This document shows, piece after piece, positions 6,811 to 22,019 of a DNA stretch of 64,000 nucleotides. The position numbers and the translations under genes are program-made. The notes below the pieces were generated by a model that was not told the origin of the DNA, did not search any database, and saw only the letters and a program-made list of their open reading frames with translations. Source of the stretch: Candidatus Rokubacteria bacterium RIFCSPLOWO2_02_FULL_73_56 (lineage in GTDB: Bacteria > Methylomirabilota > Methylomirabilia > Rokubacteriales > CSP1-6); NCBI GenBank assembly GCA_001788495.1, contig MGCF01000111.1:9101-73100 (forward strand), given 5' to 3'. Numbering within the stretch: the first letter of the stretch is position 1; each line of letters opens with the position of its first letter.

Positions 6811-7905
6811 ATGCCGACGGTCTTCAGCGCCCACTATCTCGACGGGCGGACCGCCGAGCGCCGGCCCGCCTCCGTCCGCGTCGGCGCCGCCGGGCTCGAG
6901 ATCACGCTCCCGGACGGTCGCACGCACCGCTGGCCGCTCGCTGACGTCCGGCAGACGCAGGGGTTCTACGCGGGCGAGCAGGTCCGCCTCGAGCGCGGCC
7001 GCGCCGTCCCCGAGGTCCTCCTGGTGGAGGACCCGGCGCTGCTGGCGGCGCTCAGGCGCGCCGGGGGCGCGGGCCGGAGCTTCCACGGCCCGCGGCGCCG
7101 GAGCCTGCGCGTGCTGCTCACCGGCCTGGCCGCGCTCGCCGTGGTCGCCCTCGCCGGCGCCCTCCACGTCTGGGGCGTCCCGGCCGCCTCGAGCGTCGTG
7201 GCGTCGCTGCTCCCGGTGGCGTGGGAGGACAGGATCGGCGGCGCGGCGGTCGCCCAGATCGTGCCGCCGGAGCGGCGGTGCCCCGACACGACGCTCAACG
7301 CCGTGCTGGACGCGCTCGTCGCCCGGCTGGTCGCGCAGGCGCCCCCCACGTACCGCATCCGGGTCACGGTCATGGACCACCCGGCCGTCAACGCGTTCGC
7401 CGCACCGGGCGGCCACGTCGTGGTCTTCCGCGGGCTGCTCCAGCGCACGCGCACGCCCGAGGAGCTGGCGGGCGTCCTCGCCCACGAGCTCCAGCACGTC
7501 TACCACCGCCACGGCACGCGGCTCCTCGTGCAGCACGCCTCCGCGGCGCTCCTGGTGGCCGCGGTCGCGGGCGACGTGAGCGCGCTGACGGCCTACAGCC
7601 TCGAGGCCGCGCGCGTGCTCGGCACGCTCCGCTACGCGCGCCAGCACGAGGCGGAGGCCGACGCGGACGGCCTGCGCATGCTCGTCGCCGCGCGGATCGA
7701 CCCGGACGGGATGGTGTCCTTCCTCGAGACGCTCGCGGCGCGCGAGCAGGATCGGCCGGCGGTGCTCGCGTACCTTTCCTCGCACCCGGCCACCGAGGAG
7801 CGGATCGCCGCGCTCCGGCGCCTCGCCGCGGAGGTCCGCACGCCGGTGGCGCCGATCGTCACGGGCAGCGACTGGAAGGACGTCACCCGCCTCTGCGGCG
7901 CCTGA
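6811..7905 (+). CDS. M48-family zinc metalloprotease with an N-terminal soluble domain and a TM segment
   Basis: ATG lies 2 nt after the DUF898 stop. HExxH as AHELQHVYHRH, and a downstream EAEADADG. The ORF-track entry 5572-7905 is the same frame extended upstream through non-coding shadow. Confidence 0.85.
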   Translation: MPTVFSAHYLDGRTAERRPASVRVGAAGLEITLPDGRTHRWPLADVRQTQGFYAGEQVRLERGRAVPEVLLVEDPALLAALRRAGGAGRSFHGPRRRSLRVLLTGLAALAVVALAGALHVWGVPAASSVVASLLPVAWEDRIGGAAVAQIVPPERRCPDTTLNAVLDALVARLVAQAPPTYRIRVTVMDHPAVNAFAAPGGHVVVFRGLLQRTRTPEELAGVLAHELQHVYHRHGTRLLVQHASAALLVAAVAGDVSALTAYSLEAARVLGTLRYARQHEAEADADGLRMLVAARIDPDGMVSFLETLAAREQDRPAVLAYLSSHPATEERIAALRRLAAEVRTPVAPIVTGSDWKDVTRLCGA

Positions 7906-8024
7906 CAGGGCCATCCGGGCCACCCGGTTCAGTTCCTTGGGCCAAACGATCTAGGGGGCGCAGGTCGTAAAGCGCCTGTCCTCCGCGGTGTACCATCGAG
8001 CAGGAGCGCCGCGACGAGGACGAG

Positions 8025-8966
8025 ATGACCTGGCGTGGTACGAGGTGCCTGGGCGCCCTGCTCGGGGCGGGGCTCGCGGTCGCGGCCTGCGACCGGACGC
8101 CGCAGCCGATCCCCGTGAGCTTCGCGCGACGTGTCGATGTCGCCGCCGTTCGCCCGGCCGAGGGCACGGACACTCGTCGAGCGCCCGTGCCGCTCCGGGT
8201 CGCGGTCGCCGCCATTCTCTCGCCGAGTCGGAATCTCGACGCCCACCACGACCTCCTCACCTATATCGGGAGACGTCTCGGTCGCGGCGTGCAGCTCTTC
8301 CAGCGCGGAACCTACGCCGAGGTCAACGATCTGCTGAAGCACCGCCAGGTCGATCTGGCGTTCGTCTGTGGTGGGGCTCTCGTCGTGGGCGAGCGGGAAT
8401 TCGGGATGCAGGTGCTGGCGGTTCCGCAGGTCCGTGGCAAGACGGAGTACTACTCCTACCTCATCGTGAGCCGGAAGAGCCGGTACTGGAGGCTCGAGGA
8501 TCTCCGCGGGGAGAGCTTCGCGTTTTCCGACCCCCTGTCGAACTCGGGGCGCCTGGCGATCATCCATACGCTCGTACAGCGTGGCGAGGCTCCGGAACGG
8601 TTCTTCCGTCGCACCGTGTTCACGTACAGCCACGACAACTCGATCCTCGCCGTCGCCGACGGCCTGGTGGATGGCGCCGCCGTCGACAGCCTCGTGTACG
8701 ACTATCTCAGGGCCCGGGATCCGGAAGCGGTGAGCGGGACGCGCGTGATCGCACGGTGGGGGCCCTACGGCATCCCCCCCGTCGTGGTGCACCCGGACCT
8801 CGACCCGGCGCTCCGCTCGGCGCTGCGGCTCTTGCTGCTCTCGATGCACGCCGAGCCCGATGCGAGGAAGATCCTCGATCGGCTGCGCATCGATCGCTTC
8901 GTCGAGGCGGATCCGAGTCTCTTCCAGTCGATCCGTGAGATGGAAGCCCGGGTGAGGGGGCGCTGA
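8025..8966 (+). CDS. PhnD-like (phosphonate/oxyanion-binding, PBP type 2) periplasmic lipoprotein, probable sensor accessory protein
   Basis: Lipobox LAVAAC. PhnD-family pattern: LRVAVAAILSP, YAEVNDLLKHRQVDLAF, YYSYLIVSRKS, FAFSDPLSNSG and AAVDSLVYDY. It lies 4 nt upstream of the kinase gene. Confidence 0.8.
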   Translation: MTWRGTRCLGALLGAGLAVAACDRTPQPIPVSFARRVDVAAVRPAEGTDTRRAPVPLRVAVAAILSPSRNLDAHHDLLTYIGRRLGRGVQLFQRGTYAEVNDLLKHRQVDLAFVCGGALVVGEREFGMQVLAVPQVRGKTEYYSYLIVSRKSRYWRLEDLRGESFAFSDPLSNSGRLAIIHTLVQRGEAPERFFRRTVFTYSHDNSILAVADGLVDGAAVDSLVYDYLRARDPEAVSGTRVIARWGPYGIPPVVVHPDLDPALRSALRLLLLSMHAEPDARKILDRLRIDRFVEADPSLFQSIREMEARVRGR

Positions 8967-8970
8967 GGCC

Positions 8971-10407
8971 ATGCGAGCACGGCGCTGGGCGGAGCATTTC
9001 TGGAGCGTGGCCGGGGCGGTCTCGATCCGCGTGAAGGTCATGGGGATCGTGATCGGCCTGATCCTGATGCTCGGCGTGCCCGTTACCCTGGTCGTCCATC
9101 GGGGGCTCTCCACGGCCCTCGAGCGTGAGCTCGAGGAGCGGGGCGTCGCGGTCGCGGTGAGCCTGGCGAGCCGGAGCCAGGAGCTCGTCCTGACCGATCG
9201 CCTCCTCGCGCTGTACACGCTCGCCAAGGAGACGGTGAAGAACAACAAGGGCGTGCTCTACGCGTACGTCACCGACTCGCGCGGTACGGTGCTCGTCCAC
9301 ACGTTCCCGGACGGGATGCCGGAGGGGCTGCTGAGCCTGCCCCCGCTCGTGGAGGGCGCACCGCCCAGGGTGACGCCGCTGCGCACCGAGACGGCGGTGG
9401 TCTGGAGCGTCACGGCTCCCGTCCTCGGTGGGCGGGCGGGCGCCGTGCACGTCGGCATCTCGACGAGCGAGATGCAGGCGACGGTCAGCGGGCACATTCG
9501 CGAGATCGTCGCCATCACCTCGGCGGTGCTCGTCGTCGGGACACTGCTCGGGATCGGCATGACGACGGTCCTGACGCGTCCGCTCGCGCAGCTCGCCCGC
9601 GCGGCCGAGGCCGTGGGACGCGGCGACTTCGCGTGGCGCCCGCCGGCGTGGGCGCGCGACGAGATCGGCCGGCTCGGTGCGAGCTTCGCGCAGATGGCGG
9701 AGCGGCTCGGGCACTTCCGGGACGAGCTGAGACGTCGCGACGAAGCCCGCCGGCGGCTGCTCGAGCAGATCATCACGGCGCAGGAGGAGGAGCGTCGCCG
9801 CATCGCGCGCGAGCTGCACGACGGGACGGGGCAATCGCTGACGTCGCTCACGCTGGGGCTCGCGGCGATCATCGAGTCCCGGGACCTCGACGCCGTCCAC
9901 GAGCGCGCCGCGGAGCTGCGGGTGCTGGCCGTGCGCACGCTGGACGAGGTGCACAGCCTCGCGCGCGGGCTGCGTCCGAGCATCCTCGACGACCTCGGCC
10001 TCGTCCCCGCCCTCGAGCGGCACCTGAAGGAGTACGAGGCGAGCCGCGGGCTCGCGGTGGATCTCCACGCGCGGGGCCTCGATCAGCGGCTGCCGGGTTC
10101 CGTGGAGATCGCCGTCTACCGGATCGTCCAGGAGGCGCTGACGAACATCGCCAAGCACGCGGACGCGAGCGCGGTGAGCGTGCTGCTCGAGCGCCGGGAC
10201 GACTCGGTGCGCATCATCGTCGAGGACGATGGCCGCGGGTTCGACGCGCACGCGGTGCTCGTGAGCCGGGATGCGGACCGGCGGCTGGGGCTCCACGGGA
10301 TGCACGAGCGCGCGCTCCTCCTGGGCGGGAGCCTCACCATCGAGTCGGCGCCGGGCCGAGGGACGAGTGTGTTCGCCGACATCCCGCTCGGGGAGGGCGA
10401 GACCTGA
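8971..10407 (+). CDS. Sensor histidine kinase (two TM segments with a periplasmic domain, HAMP, HisKA_3, HATPase_c)
   Basis: HAMP region (RPLAQLARAAEAVGRGDF...DEIGRLGASF), HisKA_3 H-box (RRRIARELHDGTGQSL), N box (EALTNIAKHA), and G boxes (DDGRGFD, GLHGMHERALLLGGSL). Confidence 0.9.
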   Translation: MRARRWAEHFWSVAGAVSIRVKVMGIVIGLILMLGVPVTLVVHRGLSTALERELEERGVAVAVSLASRSQELVLTDRLLALYTLAKETVKNNKGVLYAYVTDSRGTVLVHTFPDGMPEGLLSLPPLVEGAPPRVTPLRTETAVVWSVTAPVLGGRAGAVHVGISTSEMQATVSGHIREIVAITSAVLVVGTLLGIGMTTVLTRPLAQLARAAEAVGRGDFAWRPPAWARDEIGRLGASFAQMAERLGHFRDELRRRDEARRRLLEQIITAQEEERRRIARELHDGTGQSLTSLTLGLAAIIESRDLDAVHERAAELRVLAVRTLDEVHSLARGLRPSILDDLGLVPALERHLKEYEASRGLAVDLHARGLDQRLPGSVEIAVYRIVQEALTNIAKHADASAVSVLLERRDDSVRIIVEDDGRGFDAHAVLVSRDADRRLGLHGMHERALLLGGSLTIESAPGRGTSVFADIPLGEGET

Positions 10408-11060
10408 TGGCTCGCATCCGGGTGCTCCTGGCCGACGATCACGCCGTGCTCCGCGCGGGGCTGCGGGTGCTGATCAACGGCGAGCCGGACATGGAGGTCG
10501 TCGGCGAGGCGTCGACGGGGGAGGAGGCCGTGGGGCTGGCGCTGGCGGCGAAGCCGGACGTCGTCCTGCTCGATCTCACGATGCCCGGGGCGGGCGGGAT
10601 CGAGGCGACCAGGCGTATCGTGCACGACTGCCCGCCGGCCCGCGTCCTGATCCTCACGATGCACGACGACGTCGCCTATCTCCGGAGCGTGCTCGCGGCG
10701 GGGGCGTCCAGCTACGTCCTCAAGCGGTCGGCGGACACCGAGCTCCTCTCCGCGATCCGCATCACGCACCGCGGAGGGACGTACCTGGAGCCCTCCCTCG
10801 CGGGCGCCGTCGTGCAGGACGCCCTGGGACGGAGGGCGCGTCACGGCGACGCCTCGGCGAGGAACGCCCTCTCCGACCGCGAGCGGGAGGTGCTGTGTCT
10901 CGTGGCGCAGGGCCACACGAACCAGGAGATCGCCAAGCGCCTCTCGCTCTCGGTGAAGACCGTCGAGACCTACCGCGCGCGGCTCATGACCAAGCTCGGG
11001 CTGAGAACCCGCGCCGACCTGGTCCGGTACGCCCTGGCAGTCGGTCTGTTGGCTCGCTAG
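10407..11060 (+). CDS. NarL/LuxR-family response regulator (receiver plus HTH)
   Basis: ATG overlaps the kinase stop (TGATG). Receiver motifs are LLADDH, VVLLDLTMPG and ASSYVLK. The C-terminal LuxR HTH is LSDREREVLCLVAQGHTNQEIAKRLSLSVKTVETYR. Confidence 0.95.
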   Translation: MARIRVLLADDHAVLRAGLRVLINGEPDMEVVGEASTGEEAVGLALAAKPDVVLLDLTMPGAGGIEATRRIVHDCPPARVLILTMHDDVAYLRSVLAAGASSYVLKRSADTELLSAIRITHRGGTYLEPSLAGAVVQDALGRRARHGDASARNALSDREREVLCLVAQGHTNQEIAKRLSLSVKTVETYRARLMTKLGLRTRADLVRYALAVGLLAR

Positions 11061-11248
11061 GCCGTTAGGCCTTTCGGCTCAGGGGTTTCTCCCGCACTCG
11101 TCGACGAAGATATCAGGTCTTCCCCGGCAGACTGGGCGTGGCTCCCTTCCGTAGAGTGAGGCGAGGCTATGAGCACGCCACGACTCACGGGTTCGGCCGC
11201 CGCGACTCTGTTCACCCACGCCCTTCCTCACGGAACACGGAGGGTCCC

Positions 11249-13831
11249 ATGGAGCTGAGCCGTAGAAGTCTCCTGAAAGGCATCGGCGCCGTCGGAAGCC
11301 TCGCAGCGGTCAGCGTGGACTTCCCGCTGATCGCGCGCGCGGCGGAGACGGCCGCCGCGTCGGCACGGAACGTGGCCGGCGGCACACGGCGGGTGAAGAC
11401 CACCTGCTGCGTGTGCGTCAACTTCTGCGGCATCGAGGCCACCGTGCAGGACGGGGTCGTGCGCACGATCTATCCGGACGCGGCCCGGGCCGACTACTAC
11501 AATCACGGGATCTGTCCCAAGGGCGCGACGGGGATGTTCAACGTCTACGATCCCTATCGCCTCAAGAAGCCGCTCAAGCGCACCAACCCGGCGAAGGGCA
11601 TGGACCAGGATCCGCGGTGGGTGGAGATCACCTGGGAGGAAGCGTTCGCCACGGTCGCCGACCGACTCAAGAAGATCAAGGCCGACAACCCGAGCAAGCT
11701 GGTGCTGCAGTGGGGCCAGGGCAAGTACCTGATCGGCGACCAGTTCACGAAGGCTTTCGGGGACGCCTTCGGCACCCCCAACAAGGTGCACCGGACGACC
11801 ACCTGCGAGGCGGCGCGCCACATCGCGGACGAGCTGACCTGGGGCTATCACGGGTTCCTGCCGGACCTGGAGCACACCACGCTGCTGCTCAACTTCGGCG
11901 CGAACTACCACGAGGGCGAGCAGTGGGCGCGCTGGCTCGACTGGGCGACCGCCAACGGCCGGGAGCGTGGCATGAAGGTCGTGGTGATCGAGCCCCGGCT
12001 GTCCAACTGCGCGGCCAAGGCGGACCAGTGGGTGCCGGTGCGCCCCGGCAAGGACGTGGTGCTCGTCATGGCGCTCGCCCGGCTGTTGATCGACGGCGGG
12101 CACATCGACGAGGAGTTCCTGGTCACCTACACCAATGCGCCGCAGCTGGTGCGGGACGACGGCACGATCGTCACCGACACGGACGGCAAGACGCCGCTCG
12201 TGTACGACTCCGCGACCGGCAGCGCCCGCCCGTTCGGGGACGGCGTGAAGCCGGCGCTCAAGGGCGCCTGGACGCTGGACGGCACGCGCTACCGGACGGC
12301 GTTCCAGGTGTACTACGAGACCCTCGCCGCGGCGACGCCGGAATATGCCGAGGAGGTCGCGGGCGTCCCGGCCGCGACGGTGCGGGAGCTGGCCGCGGAG
12401 ATCGCGCGGCACGCGCGCATCGGCGCCACGATCACCGTCGAGGGCAAGCCCGTCCGCTACCGCCCGGTGGCGGTGCACACCTTCCGCGGCATGGCGGCCA
12501 AGGAGTACGGCGTGCAGACCTGGCGCTCCGGCATCATCCTGGAGCTGCTGATCGGCGGCGTGGACGCGGCGGGCGGCATGCTGCTCAACCACCCGTACAA
12601 CCACCCCGAGTACCTGGAAGCCTCCAAGTGCGAGTACCCGCCCAAGCGCGTAGACCTGGAAAGATCGGTCTTCTTCCCGCACGCGACCCACAACGTGGCG
12701 CAGCAGGTCAACCTCACCATCGCGGATCCGAAGGCGTTCGGGCTCCCCTACGAGCCCGCGATGCAGTTGATCTACGGCACGAACCGGCCCGTGTCCACCT
12801 CCGAGCCCCACCGCCAGTTCGCGGGCATGAAGAAGACGTTCAACGTGGTGATCGACGTGCTGCTGAGCGAGACCGCCTGGATGGCCGACATCGTGCTGCC
12901 GGACAAGGCCTACCTGGAATCGTGGCACCTGTCGCCCACCCGCTCCACGCCCGGCGCGAGCCACACCGCGATCCGCCAGGCGATCGTGAACCCGTTCAAC
13001 CTGCAGCACGACGCCTTTTCGATCTTCTGGGAGCTGGCCAAGCGCGTCGGCATGCGCGACAAGTACGTCGAGCAGATGAACAAGCAGTGGAAGCTCAAGG
13101 ACGTCAAGTTCGAGCCAGGGCGCGACTACACCGACCGGCAGTCGGTCGAGATCCTCTGGGCCGCGAAGACCAAGAAGGGCTTCCAGGTCGCGCTCGACCA
13201 CGCCTTCGTCGGCAAGAAGAAGGCGCCGGGCGAGCGCTATCTGCACGGCGTCGAGAAGGCGTTCAAGGGGCCGGGCAAGCCGAAGATCAAGCTCTACGCC
13301 GACCAACTGCTCCACACCTACGCCAGGGTGGTCGAGACCGCGAAGAAGCACAACCTCACGCTCGACCTGGCACGGTACAAGATAGCGCTCTCGCCGCTCC
13401 CGCGCACCGAGCACGCCTTCCCGACGCCCCACCGCGAGGCGCAGGGCTATCCCTTTTACCTGATCACGCACAAGCAGATGTACCGCAACCAGTCCGGCTG
13501 GTCGGCCGCCAACGCCCTGATCAACACCCTGGTCACGGACGAAAACGCCGTGTCCGTCAATGCCGCCACGGCCAGGCAGCTCGGCATCAAGGATGGCGAC
13601 CTGGTGGTGGTCGAGAGCCGGGTCGGCACGGCCAGGGGCCGCGCCCGGGTGGTACAGGGCATTCGCCCGGACACGGTGGCCGTCTCCTACCACTACGGCC
13701 AGTTCAGTCCCGGGTACGCGCCCCAGGCCCGCAAGGGGATCTACATCAACCAGGTGCTGGAGCTTCATCCCGACCTGATCGCCGGCATGAACTCCTTCAA
13801 CGACACGAAGGTCCGCCTCAGCAAGGCCTAG
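11249..13831 (+). CDS. Tat-exported molybdopterin (Mo/W-bisPGD) oxidoreductase catalytic subunit, Psr/Phs/Ttr/Arr-like clade
   Basis: GGAGG RBS, then MELSRRSLLKGIGAVG (twin-arginine signal). N-terminal [4Fe-4S] motif CxxCxxxC...C (TCCVCVNFCG...HGICPKG). Candidate Cys metal ligand in HRTTTCEAARH. C-terminal MopB/beta-barrel-like region (ATARQLGIKDGDLVVVESRVG...RVVQGIRPDTVAV). The ORF-track start at 11138 lies upstream of the Tat signal and I consider it unlikely. Confidence 0.9.
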   Translation: MELSRRSLLKGIGAVGSLAAVSVDFPLIARAAETAAASARNVAGGTRRVKTTCCVCVNFCGIEATVQDGVVRTIYPDAARADYYNHGICPKGATGMFNVYDPYRLKKPLKRTNPAKGMDQDPRWVEITWEEAFATVADRLKKIKADNPSKLVLQWGQGKYLIGDQFTKAFGDAFGTPNKVHRTTTCEAARHIADELTWGYHGFLPDLEHTTLLLNFGANYHEGEQWARWLDWATANGRERGMKVVVIEPRLSNCAAKADQWVPVRPGKDVVLVMALARLLIDGGHIDEEFLVTYTNAPQLVRDDGTIVTDTDGKTPLVYDSATGSARPFGDGVKPALKGAWTLDGTRYRTAFQVYYETLAAATPEYAEEVAGVPAATVRELAAEIARHARIGATITVEGKPVRYRPVAVHTFRGMAAKEYGVQTWRSGIILELLIGGVDAAGGMLLNHPYNHPEYLEASKCEYPPKRVDLERSVFFPHATHNVAQQVNLTIADPKAFGLPYEPAMQLIYGTNRPVSTSEPHRQFAGMKKTFNVVIDVLLSETAWMADIVLPDKAYLESWHLSPTRSTPGASHTAIRQAIVNPFNLQHDAFSIFWELAKRVGMRDKYVEQMNKQWKLKDVKFEPGRDYTDRQSVEILWAAKTKKGFQVALDHAFVGKKKAPGERYLHGVEKAFKGPGKPKIKLYADQLLHTYARVVETAKKHNLTLDLARYKIALSPLPRTEHAFPTPHREAQGYPFYLITHKQMYRNQSGWSAANALINTLVTDENAVSVNAATARQLGIKDGDLVVVESRVGTARGRARVVQGIRPDTVAVSYHYGQFSPGYAPQARKGIYINQVLELHPDLIAGMNSFNDTKVRLSKA

Positions 13832-13847
13832 AGGACAGGAGACGGGC

Positions 13848-14537
13848 ATGGCCAAGTTCGTCCGCGTGATCGACACCAAGCGGTGCATGGGCTGTCGCGC
13901 CTGCGTCGCGGCCTGCGCGGTGGAGAACTACTACGTCCCCGACGCGCCCTGGAACGTGATGATGGAGTACGAGGTCGGCACCTTCCCCAACGTCCGGAAG
14001 GTGTTCACCGCGATGAACTGCATGCACTGCGAGCACCCGTCGTGCAAGGCGGCCTGCGACGCCATCGGCGTCAAGGCGATCAGCAAGAACCGGTTCGGGG
14101 TGGTGCTGATCGACTACGACAAGTGCATCGGCTGCGGCTACTGCGCGGCTGTCTGTCCCTACGGCGTGCCGCAGATGAACACCCGTGTCGCGCCCCTGGT
14201 GCCCGGCAAGGGCGGGGTGGCCTACGAGGCGATCCCCGCCTCGGAGCGTCATCCGACCCACCGCAAGAAGGTCAAGGTCGCCGAGAAGTGCACGTTCTGC
14301 TGGCACAAGCTCGAGCGGGCCGTCGCCGACGGCAAGCAGGACCGCATCGGCAAGGACCAGGCCTACACGCCCACGTGCGACCTGGTGTGTCCGACCCAGG
14401 CGCGCGTCTTCGGCGACCTGGACGATCCGAACAGCACGGTATCTCGGGTGATCGGCGACAAGCGGGCCACGCAGCTCAAGAAGGAGTTCGGCACGCGACC
14501 CCAGGTCTACTACGTGCTCGAGGGAGGCGACTACTGA
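13848..14537 (+). CDS. Four-cluster [4Fe-4S] ferredoxin-type electron-transfer subunit (PsrB/DmsB-like)
   Basis: Four Cys groups: CMGCRACVAAC, CMHCEHPSCKAAC, CIGCGYCAAVCP and CTFC...CDLVCP. Confidence 0.9.
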   Translation: MAKFVRVIDTKRCMGCRACVAACAVENYYVPDAPWNVMMEYEVGTFPNVRKVFTAMNCMHCEHPSCKAACDAIGVKAISKNRFGVVLIDYDKCIGCGYCAAVCPYGVPQMNTRVAPLVPGKGGVAYEAIPASERHPTHRKKVKVAEKCTFCWHKLERAVADGKQDRIGKDQAYTPTCDLVCPTQARVFGDLDDPNSTVSRVIGDKRATQLKKEFGTRPQVYYVLEGGDY

Positions 14538-14881
14538 TGAAGACGCTGCTCATCGCGGTGGCGCTGGGCGCCCTCGCCGGTGGGGCCTTCGCCGCCGGAC
14601 TCGACGACACGGCTGACCGGATCAGGGCCGGGACGATCGACGTCGGCAAGAATCTCTCGATGGCGGCCGATGCCCGGTATCACACCATTCACGCGGAGAA
14701 GGTGGGGCTCGGCTGTACGACCTGCCACGTCTCCGGCTTCCCTGCCGATTATCTGCTGCTGCGCAAGGACGACCGGCTCCCCGAGAGTCAGCCCGGTCCC
14801 GTGGACCGGGCGGTCTGCCTGGGCTGCCATTCGCAAGACGGCCCGGCCACGACGTTCTACGGCCCGGCAGCCGGGAAGTGA
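14537..14881 (+). CDS. Small secreted dihaem c-type cytochrome
   Basis: ATG overlaps the stop of the FeS gene (TGATG). Signal peptide MKTLLIAVALGALAGGAFAA. Two CxxCH motifs (CTTCH, CLGCH) and extra His residues (YHTIH) that could act as distal ligands. Confidence 0.85.
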   Translation: MKTLLIAVALGALAGGAFAAGLDDTADRIRAGTIDVGKNLSMAADARYHTIHAEKVGLGCTTCHVSGFPADYLLLRKDDRLPESQPGPVDRAVCLGCHSQDGPATTFYGPAAGK

Positions 14882-15618
14882 ACAGGGTGACGCTGGAGCA
14901 GCGCGTGACCGCGGATACCCGGAGCCGGGTCTACTGGCTGCTGGCCCGGCTCTTCGGCACCAGACCGGAGCCGGAGTTGCTCGAGCGCTTGGCGGCCACG
15001 CCGCCGAGCCGCGCCGCCGACGCGGACGGCGTCGTGTCGGCGCTCGTCCATTTGCACGACACCCTGGCCCGGGAGGCGCCGCAGGCGTTGGCCGAGAGGC
15101 TGGCCCCCGAGCACACGCGGCTCTTTGGCGGGCTTCGGCGGGGCTACGGCCCCCCGCCGCCGTTCGAGTCGGTCTACCGCCGGTCGCCGAACCCGGCCGA
15201 GGTGGCGCTCGAAGTGATGGCGGCGTACGAGGCCGCGGGCTTCGGCGCCATGGACGAGGCCCTGGGACCACCGGATACCGTGAGCGCCGAGCTCGAGTTC
15301 ATGGCGCTCGCGTGCTTCCGAGAATCCGAGGCGTGGGCGCAGGGGGACGCACAGGAAGCCCTCGCCTGGCAGGAACGTCAGCGCACGTTTCTCGACGAGC
15401 ATCTGCTGGCATGGTTACCGGCGCTCTGTGACGCTCTCCGGGCCGCCACCCGCGAACCGTACTTCCGCCACGTGGCGGATCTGGCCGAGGCCACGTGCCG
15501 CGCCGACCGGGACGACCTCTCGCCGCCGGCATCCTCGCCGAGCTCGCCGACGGCGACTACGATGCCCTCGACCGGCAATACCAGGAGCTGTTCGTCGTGC
15601 CGCTCGGCCGCTACGTGA
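14878..15618 (+). CDS. TorD/DmsD-family redox-enzyme maturation chaperone (3' end uncertain)
   Basis: GTG start overlaps the cytochrome stop (GTGA). TorD-like features: RVYWLLARLF, EHTRLFGG...PPPFESVYR, SAELEFMA and FLDEHLLAWLP. The domain looks complete by about residue 214 (near 15520). The remaining tail (SPPASSPSSPTATT...) looks like out-of-frame read-through. Confidence 0.75.
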   Translation: MNRVTLEQRVTADTRSRVYWLLARLFGTRPEPELLERLAATPPSRAADADGVVSALVHLHDTLAREAPQALAERLAPEHTRLFGGLRRGYGPPPPFESVYRRSPNPAEVALEVMAAYEAAGFGAMDEALGPPDTVSAELEFMALACFRESEAWAQGDAQEALAWQERQRTFLDEHLLAWLPALCDALRAATREPYFRHVADLAEATCRADRDDLSPPASSPSSPTATTMPSTGNTRSCSSCRSAAT

Positions 15619-15689
15619 CGCCGTACGAGGCCGTGTACAGACGCGGGGAGCCCCTTGACAGAGCGCGGACAACGCCGGCGGCGCGCTAG
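15495..15689 (+). pseudogene. Truncated N-terminal remnant of a second TorD-like chaperone copy
   Basis: In a different frame from the upstream chaperone the translation gives LAAGILAELADGDYDALDRQYQELFVVPLGRYVTPYEAVYRRGEP. This repeats the TorD (Y/H)xxLF...P(Y/F)ESVY signature and then stops after about 64 codons. Confidence 0.55.
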
Positions 15690-15994
15690 CCGCCCGCCGG
15701 GACGCTCCGGGGCGTCGCAGGACGTCGCGGCCCGGGCGACAGGAGATTCGCGCACTCGATGAAGCAGTCGAGCGCGGTCACCAGCTCCCCCAGATTGCTT
15801 CGGGGGGGCACCTCGACGGTGAGCTCGCGGCGGTCGGCGGTCACCTTCGCCCCGGTGAGCGGCGCGGACAGCGCGTGCGTCTTGAAGTACTGGATCCAGG
15901 CGGCCTCGGGCTGGCGGTTGAGCTTGAGGTGGATGAGCAGCCGACCGTCGCCCTGCTCGAACCTGGGCGCACCGACACGGCGGATCCCCACCAT
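15686..15994 (-). CDS. Hypothetical small protein (102 aa)
   Basis: ATG at 15994, with GC3-rich codon usage throughout (MVGIRRVGAPRFEQGDGRLLIHLKLNRQPEAAWIQYFKTHA...LDCFIECANLL). I recognise no family. It is the last gene of the minus-strand cluster. Confidence 0.5.
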   Translation of the reverse strand: MVGIRRVGAPRFEQGDGRLLIHLKLNRQPEAAWIQYFKTHALSAPLTGAKVTADRRELTVEVPPRSNLGELVTALDCFIECANLLSPGPRRPATPRSVPAGG

Positions 15995-16164
15995 GGCCGT
16001 CTCCCCGTCGCCAAGCCCGGCCGCGCCGCCTCCCTCGTGGAGGACGCGGCGTGCCGCGGAGCAAGGGGCAGCATCGCGCATGCCACCGGCCGATCGCGCC
16101 CGAAATCGAGGACTTGCGCCCGGCGCGCCGGGGCACGCTGGCACCCCTGTCGGCGGCCTGACGC

Positions 16165-17442
16165 TCAGGCGCTTGCGGCGAGGGCCTCGTCGAACGCGTC
16201 GAGCGTCTGGGCAATGTCCGGGTCCGAGTGGGCGAGCGAGATGTACATCTTGGCCCCCGGGATCACGAAGACGCCCCGGCGGATCAGCTCGAGGCCGAGG
16301 CGCCCCGCGCGCTTGCCGTCGGCGCGGCGCAGGTCGCGCTCGGTCGCGATGGGCCCCGCCGGGTCGAGGAACACGGGCTGGGCGATCGGGCCCTCGCCGA
16401 GCGCCTGGAGCCCGACGCCGCGGCGCGCGGCCACCTGCGCCAGGCCCTCGCGCAGCATGCGGCCGAGCGCGGCCAGGCGCGCGTAGACGCCGGGCCCCGC
16501 GAGCTCGTCGAGCGCGGCGAGCCCCGCGGCGCAGGCGAGGGGGTTGCCCGAGAGCGTGCCCGAGAGGAGCGCGTAGTCGAGCGTGCCCTTGCGCGCCGGA
16601 TCGGCGGTGCCCATGACGTCGGCGCGGCCGCCGACGGCGGCGAGCGAGTAGCCGCAGGTGAGCGCCTTGCCGTAGGTCGCGAGGTCGGGCATCACGCCGT
16701 AGAACTCCTGCGCCCCGCCCCACGCGAGCCTGAAGCCCGTGACCACCTCGTCGAAGATCAGCAGGCACCCGTGGCGGTCGGCGAGCGCGCGCAGCCCCGC
16801 GAGGAACCCCGGCGCGGGACGCAGCGCCCGCTGGAGCGGCTCGACGATGATCGCGGCGACGTCGCGCCCGTGGACGGCGAGGACCTCCTCCGTCGTCCCG
16901 AGGTCGTTGAACGGCGCCACGAGCACGCTCTCGAGCGCGCCCTTGGGCACGCCGCCCACGTCGGGCCGCGCGGTCGGGAAGGGCGCCTCGCTCCACGCGA
17001 AGTTGCCCGTCATCGCGTAGTCGTGCAGGCCGTGCCAGCCGCCCTCGAACTTCACGATCTTCTCGCGCCCCGTGAAGGTGCGCGCCATGCGGATCGCGAA
17101 CATCGTGGCCTCGGTGCCGGTCGAGACGAAGCGGACCCTGTCGGCGCACGGCACGGCCGCGCACAGGCGCTCGGCCAGGCGGATCATGGGCTCGCTGAGC
17201 CACTGGTAGGTCGAGCCCTTCGCCGCCTGGGCCTGGACGGCGGCGACGACGGCCGGCGGCGCGTGGCCGAGGAGCAGCGGGCCCGAGCCGAGCACATAGT
17301 CGATGTAGGCGCGCCCGCGCGTATCCCACACGCGGCTGCCCTCGCCGCGCGCCACGACGAACGCGACGTCGGGCGGCAGCGTCCACATCCAGGAGGAGCC
17401 GCCGGGCAGGTACTTGAACGCGCGCGCGAGCAGGTCGTCCAT
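16165..17442 (-). CDS. Class-III PLP aminotransferase, glutamate-1-semialdehyde 2,1-aminomutase-like
   Basis: HemL-like pattern: YLPGG, GSGPLLLGHA, FVSTGTEATM, LLIFDEVVTGFR and PDLATYGKALTCGYSLAAVGG (PLP lysine). The start shares 1 nt with the upstream ligase stop (ATGA on the minus strand). Confidence 0.85.
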   Translation of the reverse strand: MDDLLARAFKYLPGGSSWMWTLPPDVAFVVARGEGSRVWDTRGRAYIDYVLGSGPLLLGHAPPAVVAAVQAQAAKGSTYQWLSEPMIRLAERLCAAVPCADRVRFVSTGTEATMFAIRMARTFTGREKIVKFEGGWHGLHDYAMTGNFAWSEAPFPTARPDVGGVPKGALESVLVAPFNDLGTTEEVLAVHGRDVAAIIVEPLQRALRPAPGFLAGLRALADRHGCLLIFDEVVTGFRLAWGGAQEFYGVMPDLATYGKALTCGYSLAAVGGRADVMGTADPARKGTLDYALLSGTLSGNPLACAAGLAALDELAGPGVYARLAALGRMLREGLAQVAARRGVGLQALGEGPIAQPVFLDPAGPIATERDLRRADGKRAGRLGLELIRRGVFVIPGAKMYISLAHSDPDIAQTLDAFDEALAASA

Positions 17443-20276: not shown

Positions 20277-20696
20277 TCAGCGGTCGCCGACGACTCTGAG
20301 GCCGCAGGCTCTCGCGGCAGTTCCCAGGGCGACGTCGTGGGTAGCCATGACGAGGCCGGTTCCGATGCGCTCGTTCCAGAGGAGCGCCGTGGCGAGATGG
20401 ATGGCGTCGAGGGTCCCGAGCTCCGTCGGCAATGGCTGGGCCGCCCGGGCCAGCACCGGCGCGGTGACTTCGACGAGCTCCATGCTCTCCAGAAGCCGGA
20501 ACACCGCCGCCCGCCGGCGAGCGAGGTCCCGGTCGGGGAGACCGGCGCGCAGGCGGAGGCGGTCCAGGGTCCGCAGGCACTCGGTTTCGACGAGCGCACT
20601 GGCGACACCCGTCCGGATGCCCCTCCACTCCTTAAGGGAGCCGGCCTGCCGGAGCACCTTGCGGAGGAGGACGGACGAGTCGACGTAGGCGATCAT
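20277..20696 (-). CDS. vapC: PIN-domain toxin (VapC-type ribonuclease)
   Basis: MIAYVDSSVLL (first acidic residue), ETECL, LGTLDAIHLATAL and THDVAL are typical PIN acidic and structural motifs. The start overlaps the antitoxin stop by 4 nt. Confidence 0.85.
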   Translation of the reverse strand: MIAYVDSSVLLRKVLRQAGSLKEWRGIRTGVASALVETECLRTLDRLRLRAGLPDRDLARRRAAVFRLLESMELVEVTAPVLARAAQPLPTELGTLDAIHLATALLWNERIGTGLVMATHDVALGTAARACGLRVVGDR

Positions 20697-20962
20697 CGCT
20701 CGTGCTGCCGCTCCTCGTGGAGAAGCGCGACCACGTCGACCTTCAAGCGCAGGCGCGGCGGGAGCGTCACCCGATGGAGCCTCGGCGCTCCGGGCCGGGG
20801 CCGGCGGACGCTGAGCGTCTCGGGCTCCCGTGCGTACGGCACGAGTCGGGCCACGGGGGTATCCCGGTCGAGCACGGTCAGCGTGCGGCCCCGGCGGACC
20901 GTGCGGAGGTGCTTGCTCAGTCGCGCCTTCAGGTCCGCGATGCGGATGGCATTCATGGTCAT
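20693..20962 (-). CDS. Type II antitoxin, Phd/YefM-like
   Basis: N-terminus MNAIRIADLKARLSKHLRTVRRGRTLTVLDRDTPVARLVP matches the Phd/YefM pattern. Alternative ATG starts at 20956 and 20983. Confidence 0.75.
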   Translation of the reverse strand: MTMNAIRIADLKARLSKHLRTVRRGRTLTVLDRDTPVARLVPYAREPETLSVRRPRPGAPRLHRVTLPPRLRLKVDVVALLHEERQHER

Positions 20963-21008
20963 AAGATAGTCATGACTGGTCATGTTGTCAACGCCACCGA
21001 GGGGCCGC

Positions 21009-22019
21009 TCAGAGCTTGTAGAGGCGGCGGCAGTTGTCGGCGAGCACCTTGCGCTTCTGCGCGTCGGTGAGGTCGCCACGGTTCCGGATCTCGTCGATCG
21101 AGCCCGGGAAGCTGTGGTCCCAGTGCGGGAAGTCGGAAGCGTAGACGATCTGGTTCTCGCCCACGAGCTTGAGCGCCTGGGGCAGGAGCCACTCGTCGGC
21201 CTCGCACGAGAAGTAGATCCTGCCCGCGCGCACGTAGGCGCTCGGCTTCTGCTTGAGCACCGGCGCCTCGACCTCGCCCCGCTTGTCGTACTCGTCGTCC
21301 ATCCGCTCCATCCAGTACGGCGCCCAGCCGGCGCCGGCCTCGAGGAACGCCAGGCGGAGGTCCGGGAAGCGCTCGGGGATCCCCTCGAGGACGATGGACG
21401 TGAGCTGGCGCATCTGGCCGAACGGGTGCGAGCACGTGTGCGCCTGGATGAAGCGCGGGAAGAGGTCCACGCCCGCGCCGCCCAGGTGCGAGCCCGAGGC
21501 GTGGACGGCCAGGGCCACGTCGAGGCGCTGCGCCTCCTCGTAGATGGGCGCGAACCGCTCGTCGCCGAGGACGTGCGGGCCGTCGGCGGCGAGCATGCCG
21601 CCCACGTGGCCGAGCTCCCGCACCGCGCGCCGGAGCTCGTTCGCCGCCGCCTCGGGGTGCTGGATCGGCAGGAGCGCGACGGCCTTGAGCCGCGGGCTCA
21701 CCCGGAGGAACTCCTCGTGGAGCAGCGTGTTGTAGGCGCGGCAGAGCCGCACGGCCCACTCGCGGTCCCGGAGGAAGCTCATGAAGAGGCCGAGCGTCGG
21801 GTACAGCACCGCCAGCTCCATGCCGCCCCGGTCGAGCGCCCGGAGCCAGCTCTCGGCGTCGCCCGCCCAGTCGTGGAACTTGTCCACGAGCCGGCGGTCC
21901 CAGCCGTCCGCGGTGTACCAGGGGAACGTGAGCGGGCGGTTCCTGTACGGCGCGTCCAGGTACCGCTGGAGCTGCTCGTAGGACTCGGTCACGTGCCCGT
22001 CGGCGTCCAGCACCGTCAT
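21009..22019 (-). CDS. Amidohydrolase_2 (ACMSD/LigW-type metal-dependent hydrolase/decarboxylase) family protein
   Basis: VLDADGHV N-terminal metal motif, HASGSH, AFLEAGAGW and YASDFPHWD, as in PF04909 proteins. Confidence 0.8.
   Translation of the reverse strand: MTVLDADGHVTESYEQLQRYLDAPYRNRPLTFPWYTADGWDRRLVDKFHDWAGDAESWLRALDRGGMELAVLYPTLGLFMSFLRDREWAVRLCRAYNTLLHEEFLRVSPRLKAVALLPIQHPEAAANELRRAVRELGHVGGMLAADGPHVLGDERFAPIYEEAQRLDVALAVHASGSHLGGAGVDLFPRFIQAHTCSHPFGQMRQLTSIVLEGIPERFPDLRLAFLEAGAGWAPYWMERMDDEYDKRGEVEAPVLKQKPSAYVRAGRIYFSCEADEWLLPQALKLVGENQIVYASDFPHWDHSFPGSIDEIRNRGDLTDAQKRKVLADNCRRLYKL

Follow-up and report, generated by a model that had tools for sequence, protein, structure and literature searches.

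The region analyzed here, hereafter called the window, is a stretch of 64,000 nucleotides from the groundwater bacterium Candidatus Rokubacteria bacterium RIFCSPLOWO2_02_FULL_73_56 (contig MGCF01000111.1, positions 9,101 to 73,100). Between positions 11249 and 15618 of the window, four genes, which we call A, B, C and D, follow one another on the + strand. Gene A (11249-13831, 860 aa) encodes a Tat-exported Mo-bisPGD catalytic subunit with the twin-arginine leader MELSRRSLLKG, an FS0 [4Fe-4S] motif (C53-x2-C56-x3-C60-x28-C89) and the sequence HRTTTCEAARH at residues 181-191, in which Cys186 is the likely Mo ligand. Pfam detects the Molybdop_Fe4S4, Molybdopterin and Molydop_binding domains in this protein. 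Gene B (13848-14537, 229 aa) encodes an electron-transfer subunit whose 16 Cys are arranged as four [4Fe-4S] motifs and which has no signal peptide of its own. Its best NCBIfam model is ArrB, although with a score of 133 bits against a cut-off of 450. Gene C (14537-14881, 114 aa) encodes a Sec-exported c-type cytochrome with two haem-binding motifs, CTTCH and CLGCH, for which bis-His ligation is predicted owing to an additional HxxH (H49 and H52). Only weak matches to the c7 and HmcA families were obtained for C. Finally, gene D (14878-15618, 246 aa) encodes a TorD/NarJ-family maturation chaperone (Pfam Nitrate_red_del, 4e-22; TIGR03482, 68.8 bits, below its cut-off of 152). A and B are separated by 16 nt containing a GGAG, whereas B/C and C/D overlap as TGATG and GTGA, respectively.

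A sequence-only reading of this locus had proposed such a four-gene operon, with a dihaem cytochrome in place of a membrane anchor, and had extended it to position 15689. This description is confirmed, except that D is shorter than stated: it ends at 15618, as also given by independent gene calls on other assemblies of the same population. Position 15689 is the stop of an ORF in a different frame (15495-15689, + strand), a relic that holds an N-terminal fragment of a second TorD-like domain (Pfam Nitrate_red_del, 1.8e-5, profile positions 16-61 only). It ends at a stop codon, the gene that follows is convergent, and the fragment is found only in the window's own population.

Three further genes lie upstream of A. 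The first, X (8025-8966, +), encodes a periplasmic substrate-binding sensor (Pfam Phosphonate-bd, 9.6e-61) of the AioX/ArxX/ArrX subfamily. In the PDB it matches ArrX (6x6b, 2.3e-57) and AioX (8ed5, 1.8e-44), against about 1e-12 for PhnD/PtxB, and all seven AioX pocket residues are conserved (Y88, C106, Y131, S161, S163, H192 and D210). Five nucleotides after the end of X starts S (8971-10407, +), a sensor histidine kinase with sCache_3_2, HAMP, HisKA_3 and HATPase_c domains, whose stop codon overlaps by one base the start of R (10407-11060, +), a NarL/LuxR-type response regulator (Response_reg plus GerE). Proteobacterial relatives carry a sigma54-type ArxR-like regulator instead.

We then checked whether or not this organization is conserved. 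In 90 non-redundant related loci, wherever the flanking sequence allowed the comparison, B was present in 76/76, C in 71/71 and D in 57/58, which is far more than chance. The cytochrome contains two CxxCH in 69/70 sequences as well as a conserved HxxH. No NrfD/PsrC-type gene was found in the 64-kb window or beside the cluster in any of the 90 loci, with the only exception of those belonging to the two neighbouring Mo-enzyme clusters in the locus of Noviherbaspirillum denitrificans HC18. Interestingly, the sister lineage P0122 displays the same active-site signature but keeps an ArxC/NrfD-like gene, which fits the idea of a cytochrome taking the place of a membrane anchor.

The A subunits form a tight and unnamed clade (at least 53% identity) in the Cys-liganded Psr/Phs/Arr part of the superfamily, as the sequence-only reading had suggested. 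The best solved relative is ArrA (6cz7, 2.7e-51), followed by PsrA (7e-33). However, A falls below every NCBIfam cut-off, its best models being PhsA (295 bits, cut-off 694) and ArrA (207 bits, cut-off 1600). Bootstrapped NJ trees separate this family from Arr/Arx, with a support of 100 for the family, 100 for Arr/Arx and 0 for the two joined. The family also possesses its own active-site signature, (W/H/Y)G(Q/H)GKY and HRxxxCE(A/S)ARH, the first being WGQGKY (155-160) in the window. The tetrapeptide QGKY (residues 157-160, that is 26-29 residues before Cys186) had been tentatively compared with the (R/K)GRY motif of Arr/Arx enzymes, but this register is not supported, since phmmer, MAFFT and hhalign all align WGQG, and not QGKY, with RGRY of Arr and GRGW of Arx. 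A Gln (or His) therefore replaces the second Arg of the motif.

Several features of the genomic context point to arsenic, one of the substrates that had been listed as candidates from the sequence alone. In addition to the sensor X, ArxX/S/R-like genes lie upstream in 17/36 loci with at least 4 kb of upstream flank, an ArxB2-like Fe-S gene lies downstream in 26/37 loci and core ars genes are present in 14/53 loci. Sigma54 boxes were found upstream of A in 9/23 loci carrying an ArxR-like regulator, against 0.5% of shuffled controls. Furthermore, in N. denitrificans HC18, an anaerobic arsenite oxidiser, the cluster (RZI40411) lies 2 kb from canonical arxABCD, and its accession number is close to those of aioA (RZI40426, only 15 numbers away) and arsR (RZI40430). 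On the other hand, no experiment links any member of the family to arsenic, ars genes are adjacent in only about 30% of loci, and the window itself has no ars genes, no ArxB2-like gene and no sigma54 regulator.

On this basis, we propose that the operon encodes a periplasmic three-subunit oxidoreductase acting on an arsenic oxyanion, most likely an arsenite:cytochrome c oxidoreductase that may be reversible, although we hold this reading with only moderate confidence and the direction of the reaction is unproven. We found no description of such an enzyme in the literature that could be searched. In this hypothesis, D would insert Mo-bisPGD into A in the cytoplasm, the A-B pair would leave the cell through Tat on the twin-arginine leader of A, and C would leave through Sec and receive two haems. 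Arsenite would be oxidised at the Cys-liganded Mo centre and electrons would then pass through FS0, the four clusters of B and the two bis-His haems of C to periplasmic cytochromes or, in some relatives, to a NapC/NirT-type or a multihaem-c plus cytochrome-b module that connects to the quinone pool. C would thus take the place that the NrfD-type anchor ArxC/ArrC holds in Arx and Arr, and expression would respond to arsenic through X and the S/R two-component system. The substrate, the physical A-B-C complex and the haem ligation are, like the oxidising direction, inferred.

Concerning this direction, the X proteins of most relatives are closer to ArxX (40-56% identity) than to ArrX (28-34%), and it has been shown that ArxX and AioX bind arsenite and that each sensor binds the substrate of its own enzyme (PMC5908839). 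Most loci also have no quinone-linked partner gene, and the hosts, where a source names them, are mostly Beta-, Alpha- and Gammaproteobacteria. However, the X protein of the window is equidistant from ArxX, ArrX and AioX (38/41/38% identity) and its best PDB match is the arsenate-binding ArrX. One could assume that the enzyme is a respiratory arsenate reductase, in which electrons from quinol would pass through a NapC/CymA-type or cytochrome-b-linked cytochrome to the dihaem C, then to B and A, in analogy with Shewanella CymA-ArrAB and with NapC-NapB-NapA. Such a role would be consistent with the predicted bis-His haems, which are often low-potential, with the NapC/NirT-type genes of 9 family loci, since these partners usually feed reductases, and with the multihaem-c plus cytochrome-b genes of 4 loci. 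ArrA is also the nearest solved structure, and HC18 already has both Aio and Arx, so that a third arsenite oxidase would look redundant there. Nevertheless, we consider this possibility unlikely, because the (R/K)GRY motif used to recognise ArrA is absent, the ArxB2-like partner gene is reported as specific to arx clusters (PMC6549141), and most loci have no quinol dehydrogenase gene nearby. Moreover, Arr and Arx enzymes may be reversible in vitro, in which case cofactor content does not fix the direction.

Another hypothesis is that the enzyme acts on a different metalloid or chalcogen oxyanion, such as antimonite or antimonate, selenite, or thiosulfate, tetrathionate or thioarsenate, the arsenic-type neighbours then reflecting shared regulation or shared resistance islands. 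Supporting this idea, the active-site signature differs from both Arr and Arx, the best NCBIfam model is PhsA, about 70% of loci show no ars gene in the available flank, and a sox cluster lies directly upstream in Herbaspirillum sp. ST 5-3. An enzyme for a third substrate would also explain the coexistence with Aio and Arx in HC18. However, sox adjacency is seen in 1 of 90 loci, and the ArxX/S/R-like, ArxB2-like and ars neighbours are arsenic-specific as far as is known. In addition, AioX and ArxX bound none of the other oxyanions tested (antimonite, selenate, tetrathionate and thiosulfate among them), ArrX bound only arsenate and, weakly, phosphate (PMC5908839), and the pocket is fully conserved here. 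This explanation thus also appears doubtful.

A parallel can be drawn with several known systems. Like Arx, the alternative (anaerobic) arsenite oxidase (arxB2ABCD plus arxXSR), the system combines a Tat-exported Cys-liganded Mo-bisPGD subunit with FS0, a subunit with four Fe-S clusters (37% identity between B and ArxB of HC18), a TorD-like chaperone and an ArxX-like sensor, together with, in relatives, ArxS/R-like sigma54 regulators and an ArxB2-like Fe-S protein (30% identity). However, A is only about 26-29% identical to ArxA and has WGQGKY where Arx has XGRGWG, the NrfD-type ArxC is replaced by a dihaem cytochrome c, and in the window the regulator is NarL-type and ArxB2 is absent. ArrAB of Shewanella sp. 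ANA-3 (6cz7), with CymA as electron donor, is the nearest solved structure both by sequence and by fold. The Cys ligand aligns, the sensor is ArrX-like, and the A-B heterodimer has no dedicated NrfD subunit and depends on c-type cytochromes, but the cytochrome considered here is a small dihaem protein encoded inside the operon and not the tetrahaem CymA. The polysulfide and thiosulfate reductases Psr/Phs (PsrABC, 2vpw) belong to the same branch of the superfamily and share the A plus B architecture, but neither a PsrC (NrfD) nor a PhsC (cytochrome b) subunit is present in the window, and the genomic context is arsenic rather than sulfur.

The periplasmic nitrate reductase Nap (NapAB with NapC) follows the same logic, with a periplasmic Mo enzyme paired with a small dihaem bis-His cytochrome, and in some relatives a NapC/NirT-type tetrahaem cytochrome sits next to the operon. 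However, we did not detect any sequence similarity between C and NapB, Nap has no subunit with four Fe-S clusters, and NapA belongs to a different clade. Finally, the gene order, with a catalytic subunit, an Fe-S subunit, a c-type cytochrome and a chaperone, is that of perchlorate reductase (pcrABCD), but type II enzymes use an Asp ligand, and the scores of A on the type II alpha model (131.7 bits, cut-off 984.75) and of D on the type II chaperone model (68.8, cut-off 152.3) are below the cut-offs.

One would also wonder whether, in this Rokubacteria genome, the operon could be a decaying horizontally acquired copy without any working physiological role. The truncated TorD-like fragment at its 3' end, the lack of an ArxB2-like gene, of ars genes and of a cytochrome partner in 64 kb, and the mainly proteobacterial distribution of the family could support this view. 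It is nevertheless very unlikely, since A, B, C and D are all intact, with every cofactor motif and coupled junctions. At least 24 contigs (65 index blocks) from separate samples encode a protein identical to A, and the four that were read have the same gene order. Three further close relatives at 79-86% identity include one that keeps the ABCD order, and GC3 is 0.91-0.93, like that of the host's other genes.

On the + strand, the window carries seven co-directional genes. The first three encode X (8025-8966), a PhnD-fold periplasmic binding protein, S (8971-10407), a histidine kinase with sCache_3_2, HAMP and HisKA_3 domains, and R (10407-11060), a NarL/LuxR-type response regulator. They are followed by A (11249-13831), B (13848-14537), C (14537-14881) and D (14878-15618). 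A (860 aa) displays a twin-arginine leader (SRRSLLK), the FS0 motif C53-x2-C56-x3-C60-x28-C89, the three Mo-bisPGD Pfam domains and the sequence HRTTTCEAARH at residues 181-191. B contains 16 Cys arranged in four [4Fe-4S] motifs and has no leader of its own, whereas C has a Sec-type signal peptide, two CxxCH motifs and two further His residues (H49 and H52), and D is a TorD/NarJ-family chaperone. A and B are 16 nt apart with a GGAG between them, B and C overlap as TGATG, and C and D as GTGA. A promoter and terminator scan of 10900-16300 gave nothing useful. The window comes from a Candidatus Rokubacteria population of the Rifle aquifer, and at least 24 contigs from separate samples encode a protein identical to A. 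The four of these contigs that were read have the same gene order.

We then checked whether or not this layout is conserved. A protein search listed 120 clusters at 59-100% identity, all with generic names, and look-ups in genomes, contigs and metagenomes gave 90 non-redundant loci with A at 53% identity or more. No close relative of A was found in the plasmid collection, where all hits were below 32% identity. Where the flank is long enough, B follows A in 76/76 loci and D is present in 57/58. A word-indexed homologue search with C found only 4 close relatives, and we thus recovered the C homologues from the loci by tblastn, which detected C in 69/71. The two apparent exceptions contain a divergent ORF with two CxxCH motifs, which makes it 71/71. 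Of 70 C sequences, 69 have exactly two CxxCH motifs, and an HxxH motif is at least 90% conserved. This pattern is what bis-His, class III-like haems would show, although Pfam Cytochrome_C7 (18.8 bits, below its cut-off of 24.8) and NCBIfam HmcA give only weak matches, and the AlphaFold2 model of C (pLDDT 41) was unusable. Two loci deserve a mention here. In L003 (757-4888), a contig binned as a 'Candidatus Bathyarchaeia' MAG, a bacterial-type ABCD cluster (53% identity) has a degenerate first haem motif (SEEACH), and mis-binning or transfer is possible. In the locus L079 (about 7650-10650), there is no D after C; instead the locus encodes a monohaem c-type cytochrome (CTKCH) and a multihaem cytochrome with at least four CxxCH motifs.

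No NrfD-type gene lies beside the cluster in the family loci, except for those of the neighbouring clusters in Noviherbaspirillum denitrificans HC18, although the same NrfD queries do find such genes in non-family loci. The window itself has no NrfD, cytochrome b, multihaem cytochrome or NapC-type gene in its 64 kb. It thus lacks the membrane subunit ArxC that the Arx system encodes in its operon, as well as the PsrC or PhsC subunit expected of PsrA and PhsA.

A does not reach any NCBIfam equivalog. It scores 295 bits against a cut-off of 694 for PhsA and 206.8 bits against 1600 for ArrA (NF041714). The type II DMSO reductases (Pcr, Ser, Ebd, Nar) are no better match, since A scores 131.7 bits against 984.75 on the type II alpha model (TIGR03479), D scores 68.8 against 152.3 on the chaperone model (TIGR03482), and a Cys occupies the position of the Asp ligand. 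On the other hand, the Tat leader, the FS0 motif and the alignment of Cys186 with the ligand Cys of ArrA and PsrA place A among the Cys-liganded Psr/Phs/Arr-type Mo-bisPGD subunits, and C53, C56, C60, C89 and C186 are invariant in our alignment. The nearest solved structures are ArrA 6cz7 (2.7e-51) and PsrA 2vpw (7e-33). In a library clustered at 50% identity, the family collapses to one full-length representative. The next relative, the protein P0122, is at 39% identity, and then comes a broad field at 30-35% identity whose ten members scanned all fall below every NCBIfam cut-off. True Arr/Arx members in that list (P0264, P0222 and P0260, 36-47% identical to a bona fide ArxA, with P0264 carrying RGRY) are no closer to A than dozens of uncharacterised proteins. 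In 100 bootstrap replicates, the family was recovered 100 times, the family plus P0122 95 times, Arr/Arx 100 times, and the family joined with Arr/Arx 0 times, although these were only NJ trees with taxa sampled from the best hits to A.

The literature distinguishes ArrA by the motif (R/K)GRY near the active site (Glasser 2018, as cited in PMC6549141 and PMC11283718) and ArxA by XGRGWG. The family displays instead (W/H/Y)G(Q/H)GKY in 120/120 members and HRxxxCE(A/S)ARH in 119/120, and 0 of 120 members carry the Arr motif. Three independent alignments, made with phmmer, MAFFT and hhalign, place WGQG opposite the RGRY of Arr and the GRGW of Arx, the latter represented by the YGRGWG of ArxA from L018, a locus holding a canonical arx cluster. 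A Gln or His therefore replaces the second Arg of the motif, and K-Y follow it. The sequence-only reading had suggested that QGKY lies roughly where Arr/Arx enzymes carry (R/K)GRY, but this correspondence is out of register by two residues. Unfortunately, the AlphaFold2 model of A, built from 20 family sequences, was too weak (mean pLDDT 61, and below 50 across the active-site segments) to settle the register of the motif. Foldseek ranked ArrA first with this model, but only at a TM of about 0.5.

The case for arsenic begins with the sensor X, which matches ArrX (2.3e-57) and AioX (1.8e-44) far better than it matches PhnD or PtxB (about 1e-12). It keeps all seven pocket residues that define the arsenic-sensing subfamily (Y88, C106, Y131, S161, S163, H192 and D210; PMC5908839), including the arsenite-binding Cys. 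Among the 25 sequences aligned, which were 22 X proteins from family loci plus the ArxX, ArrX and AioX references, S163 is Thr in 17. The window itself shows only this X link, as it has no ars genes, no ArxB2-like gene and no sigma54 elements. The other indications come from the relatives. Genes like ArxX, ArxS and ArxR, the last a sigma54-type regulator, lie upstream in 17/36 loci with at least 4 kb of upstream flank, and TGGCAY-N5-TTGC boxes precede A in 9/23 loci that carry such a regulator, against 0.5% of shuffled controls. Proteobacterial relatives, such as the loci L025, L027 and L030, use this ArxS/ArxR-like sigma54 system, with -24/-12 boxes upstream of A, whereas the window pairs the AioX-like sensor with the HisKA_3 kinase and the NarL-type regulator (8971-11060). 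The regulation appears to have been rewired in the Rokubacteria copy. In addition, an Fe-S protein of about 530 aa follows D in 26/37 loci and is 30% identical to the gene upstream of ArxA in the arx cluster of L018, whose ArxX and ArxR are 44-45% identical to the X and R of the family.

Core ars genes (arsC, acr3, arsA/D, arsM, arsP) are adjacent in 14/53 loci. In Herbaspirillum sp. ST 5-3 (locus L026, CP176528.1, 345-9785), arsR-arsC-arsD-arsA-acr3 lies directly downstream of the family cluster, while a complete sox gene set (sorA-like/soxCD-like, soxYZ, soxAX, soxB, rhodanese, thioredoxins) lies directly upstream, this being the only locus with sox genes next to the cluster. In N. denitrificans HC18, a nitrate-dependent arsenite oxidiser (RPNZ01000014.1, 1-22598), three Mo-enzyme clusters lie side by side, with Rrf2, Crp, MoaA and TatA genes between them. 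The family ABCD cluster (RZI40411) sits between a ttrBCA-ordered cluster (Fe-S, NrfD, an 882-aa Mo subunit, TorD) and a canonical arxABCD, and its accession number lies close to those of aioA (RZI40426) and arsR (RZI40430). The canonical arxABCD is 2 kb away, and its ArxA is 54-66% identical to the ArxA of L018 and carries the K/A/E-rich group-3 insertion. The ttrBCA-ordered cluster type also adjoins the family in the loci L030 and L098.

We propose that D matures A in the cytoplasm, that A-B is exported through Tat and C through Sec, and that the substrate reacts at the Mo centre, from which electrons would run through FS0, the four clusters of B and the two haems of C. In this inferred scheme, C occupies the role of ArxC/ArrC. 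Interestingly, the sister lineage P0122 (locus L035, 1-3982) has the same active-site signature (QGHGKY and HRxxxCESARH) but keeps an ArxC/NrfD-like membrane gene directly upstream, and is followed by a B-like gene. This fits replacement of the anchor by a cytochrome, and P0122 is a probable ancestral, anchor-containing form of the enzyme. A few relatives add a NapC/NirT-type cytochrome (9 loci) or a membrane-tethered multihaem cytochrome plus cytochrome b (4 loci), whereas most add nothing, a pattern that fits exchange with the general periplasmic cytochrome pool. In the loci L001 (4871-6528) and L002 (8886-10498), a cytochrome of roughly 340 aa with 7-8 CxxCH motifs and a C-terminal membrane helix lies downstream of D and is followed by a FdnI/PhsC-like cytochrome b of roughly 205 aa. 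This looks like a quinone-linked module attached to the family operon in a few Alpha- and Gammaproteobacteria.

Concerning the direction of the reaction, arsenite oxidation is favoured on three grounds. The X proteins of the relatives are closer to ArxX (40-56% identity) than to ArrX (28-34%), and each sensor binds the substrate of its cognate enzyme (PMC5908839); the partner gene is ArxB2-like; and the hosts, where named, are mostly proteobacterial. On the other hand, arsenate reduction remains a serious rival, since the X of the window is nearest to ArrX, the haems are predicted to be bis-His, some relatives carry NapC-type partners, and HC18 already has both Aio and Arx. Nor can we exclude a different metalloid or sulfur oxyanion, because the pocket differs from both Arr and Arx.

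A 2023 survey of the superfamily lists only four arsenic enzymes, namely AioA, ArxA, ArrA and a Ttr-like archaeal reductase. We found no paper describing the present clade in full-text searches of the literature, although a prior mention in work on strain HC18 cannot be ruled out, and databases call it only 'molybdopterin-dependent oxidoreductase'. The 'alternative arsenite oxidase' candidate of Thioalkalivibrio is a cytoplasmic Soe-like enzyme and not this one, and the Burkholderiaceae arrA genes of PMC11283718 were required to carry R/KGRY, so they are not this family. In our view the operon probably encodes an Arr/Arx-like arsenic oxidoreductase that differs from Arr and Arx by its catalytic clade, its active-site motif and its cytochrome c subunit. 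It would also show a second solution to wiring such an enzyme, with a soluble dihaem cytochrome in place of an NrfD anchor. A bolder hypothesis, which we consider possible but tentative, would be that the family is a fourth lineage of arsenic-bioenergetic molybdoenzymes, after Aio, Arr/Arx and the Ttr-like archaeal arsenate reductase, oxidising arsenite and passing the electrons straight to periplasmic c-type cytochromes through a built-in dihaem subunit, thus bypassing the quinone pool. It is widespread in sediment and groundwater Proteobacteria and in Rokubacteria, and current aioA, arxA and arrA marker surveys would miss it, so that arsenite-oxidising capacity in such habitats would be underestimated. 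Surveys of arsenic mobility in aquifers, paddy soils and mine wastes rely on these three markers, and the clade, which matched 189 metagenome stretches besides the 120 protein clusters, is abundant and found in exactly those habitats, including the Rifle aquifer. Two cultured strains, N. denitrificans HC18 and Herbaspirillum sp. ST 5-3, carry it.

Finally, we examined the 3' end of the operon. The sequence-only reading had placed this end at 15689, but D ends at 15618 and the former coordinate belongs to an ORF in a different frame (15495-15689, + strand), which overlaps the 3' end of D. This ORF encodes only the N-terminal third of a second TorD-like domain and then stops in front of convergent genes. 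It occurs only in the window's own population, which suggests a past rearrangement or deletion at the 3' end of the operon. The 539-aa Fe-S gene of L025 does not explain this fragment, since its protein shows no TorD-like segment and the fragment found no match in L025. A 102-aa ORF with no family match (15686-15994, - strand) is convergent with the operon, and further on lies a pair formed by a PIN-domain toxin and a PhdYeFM-type antitoxin (20277-21079, - strand).
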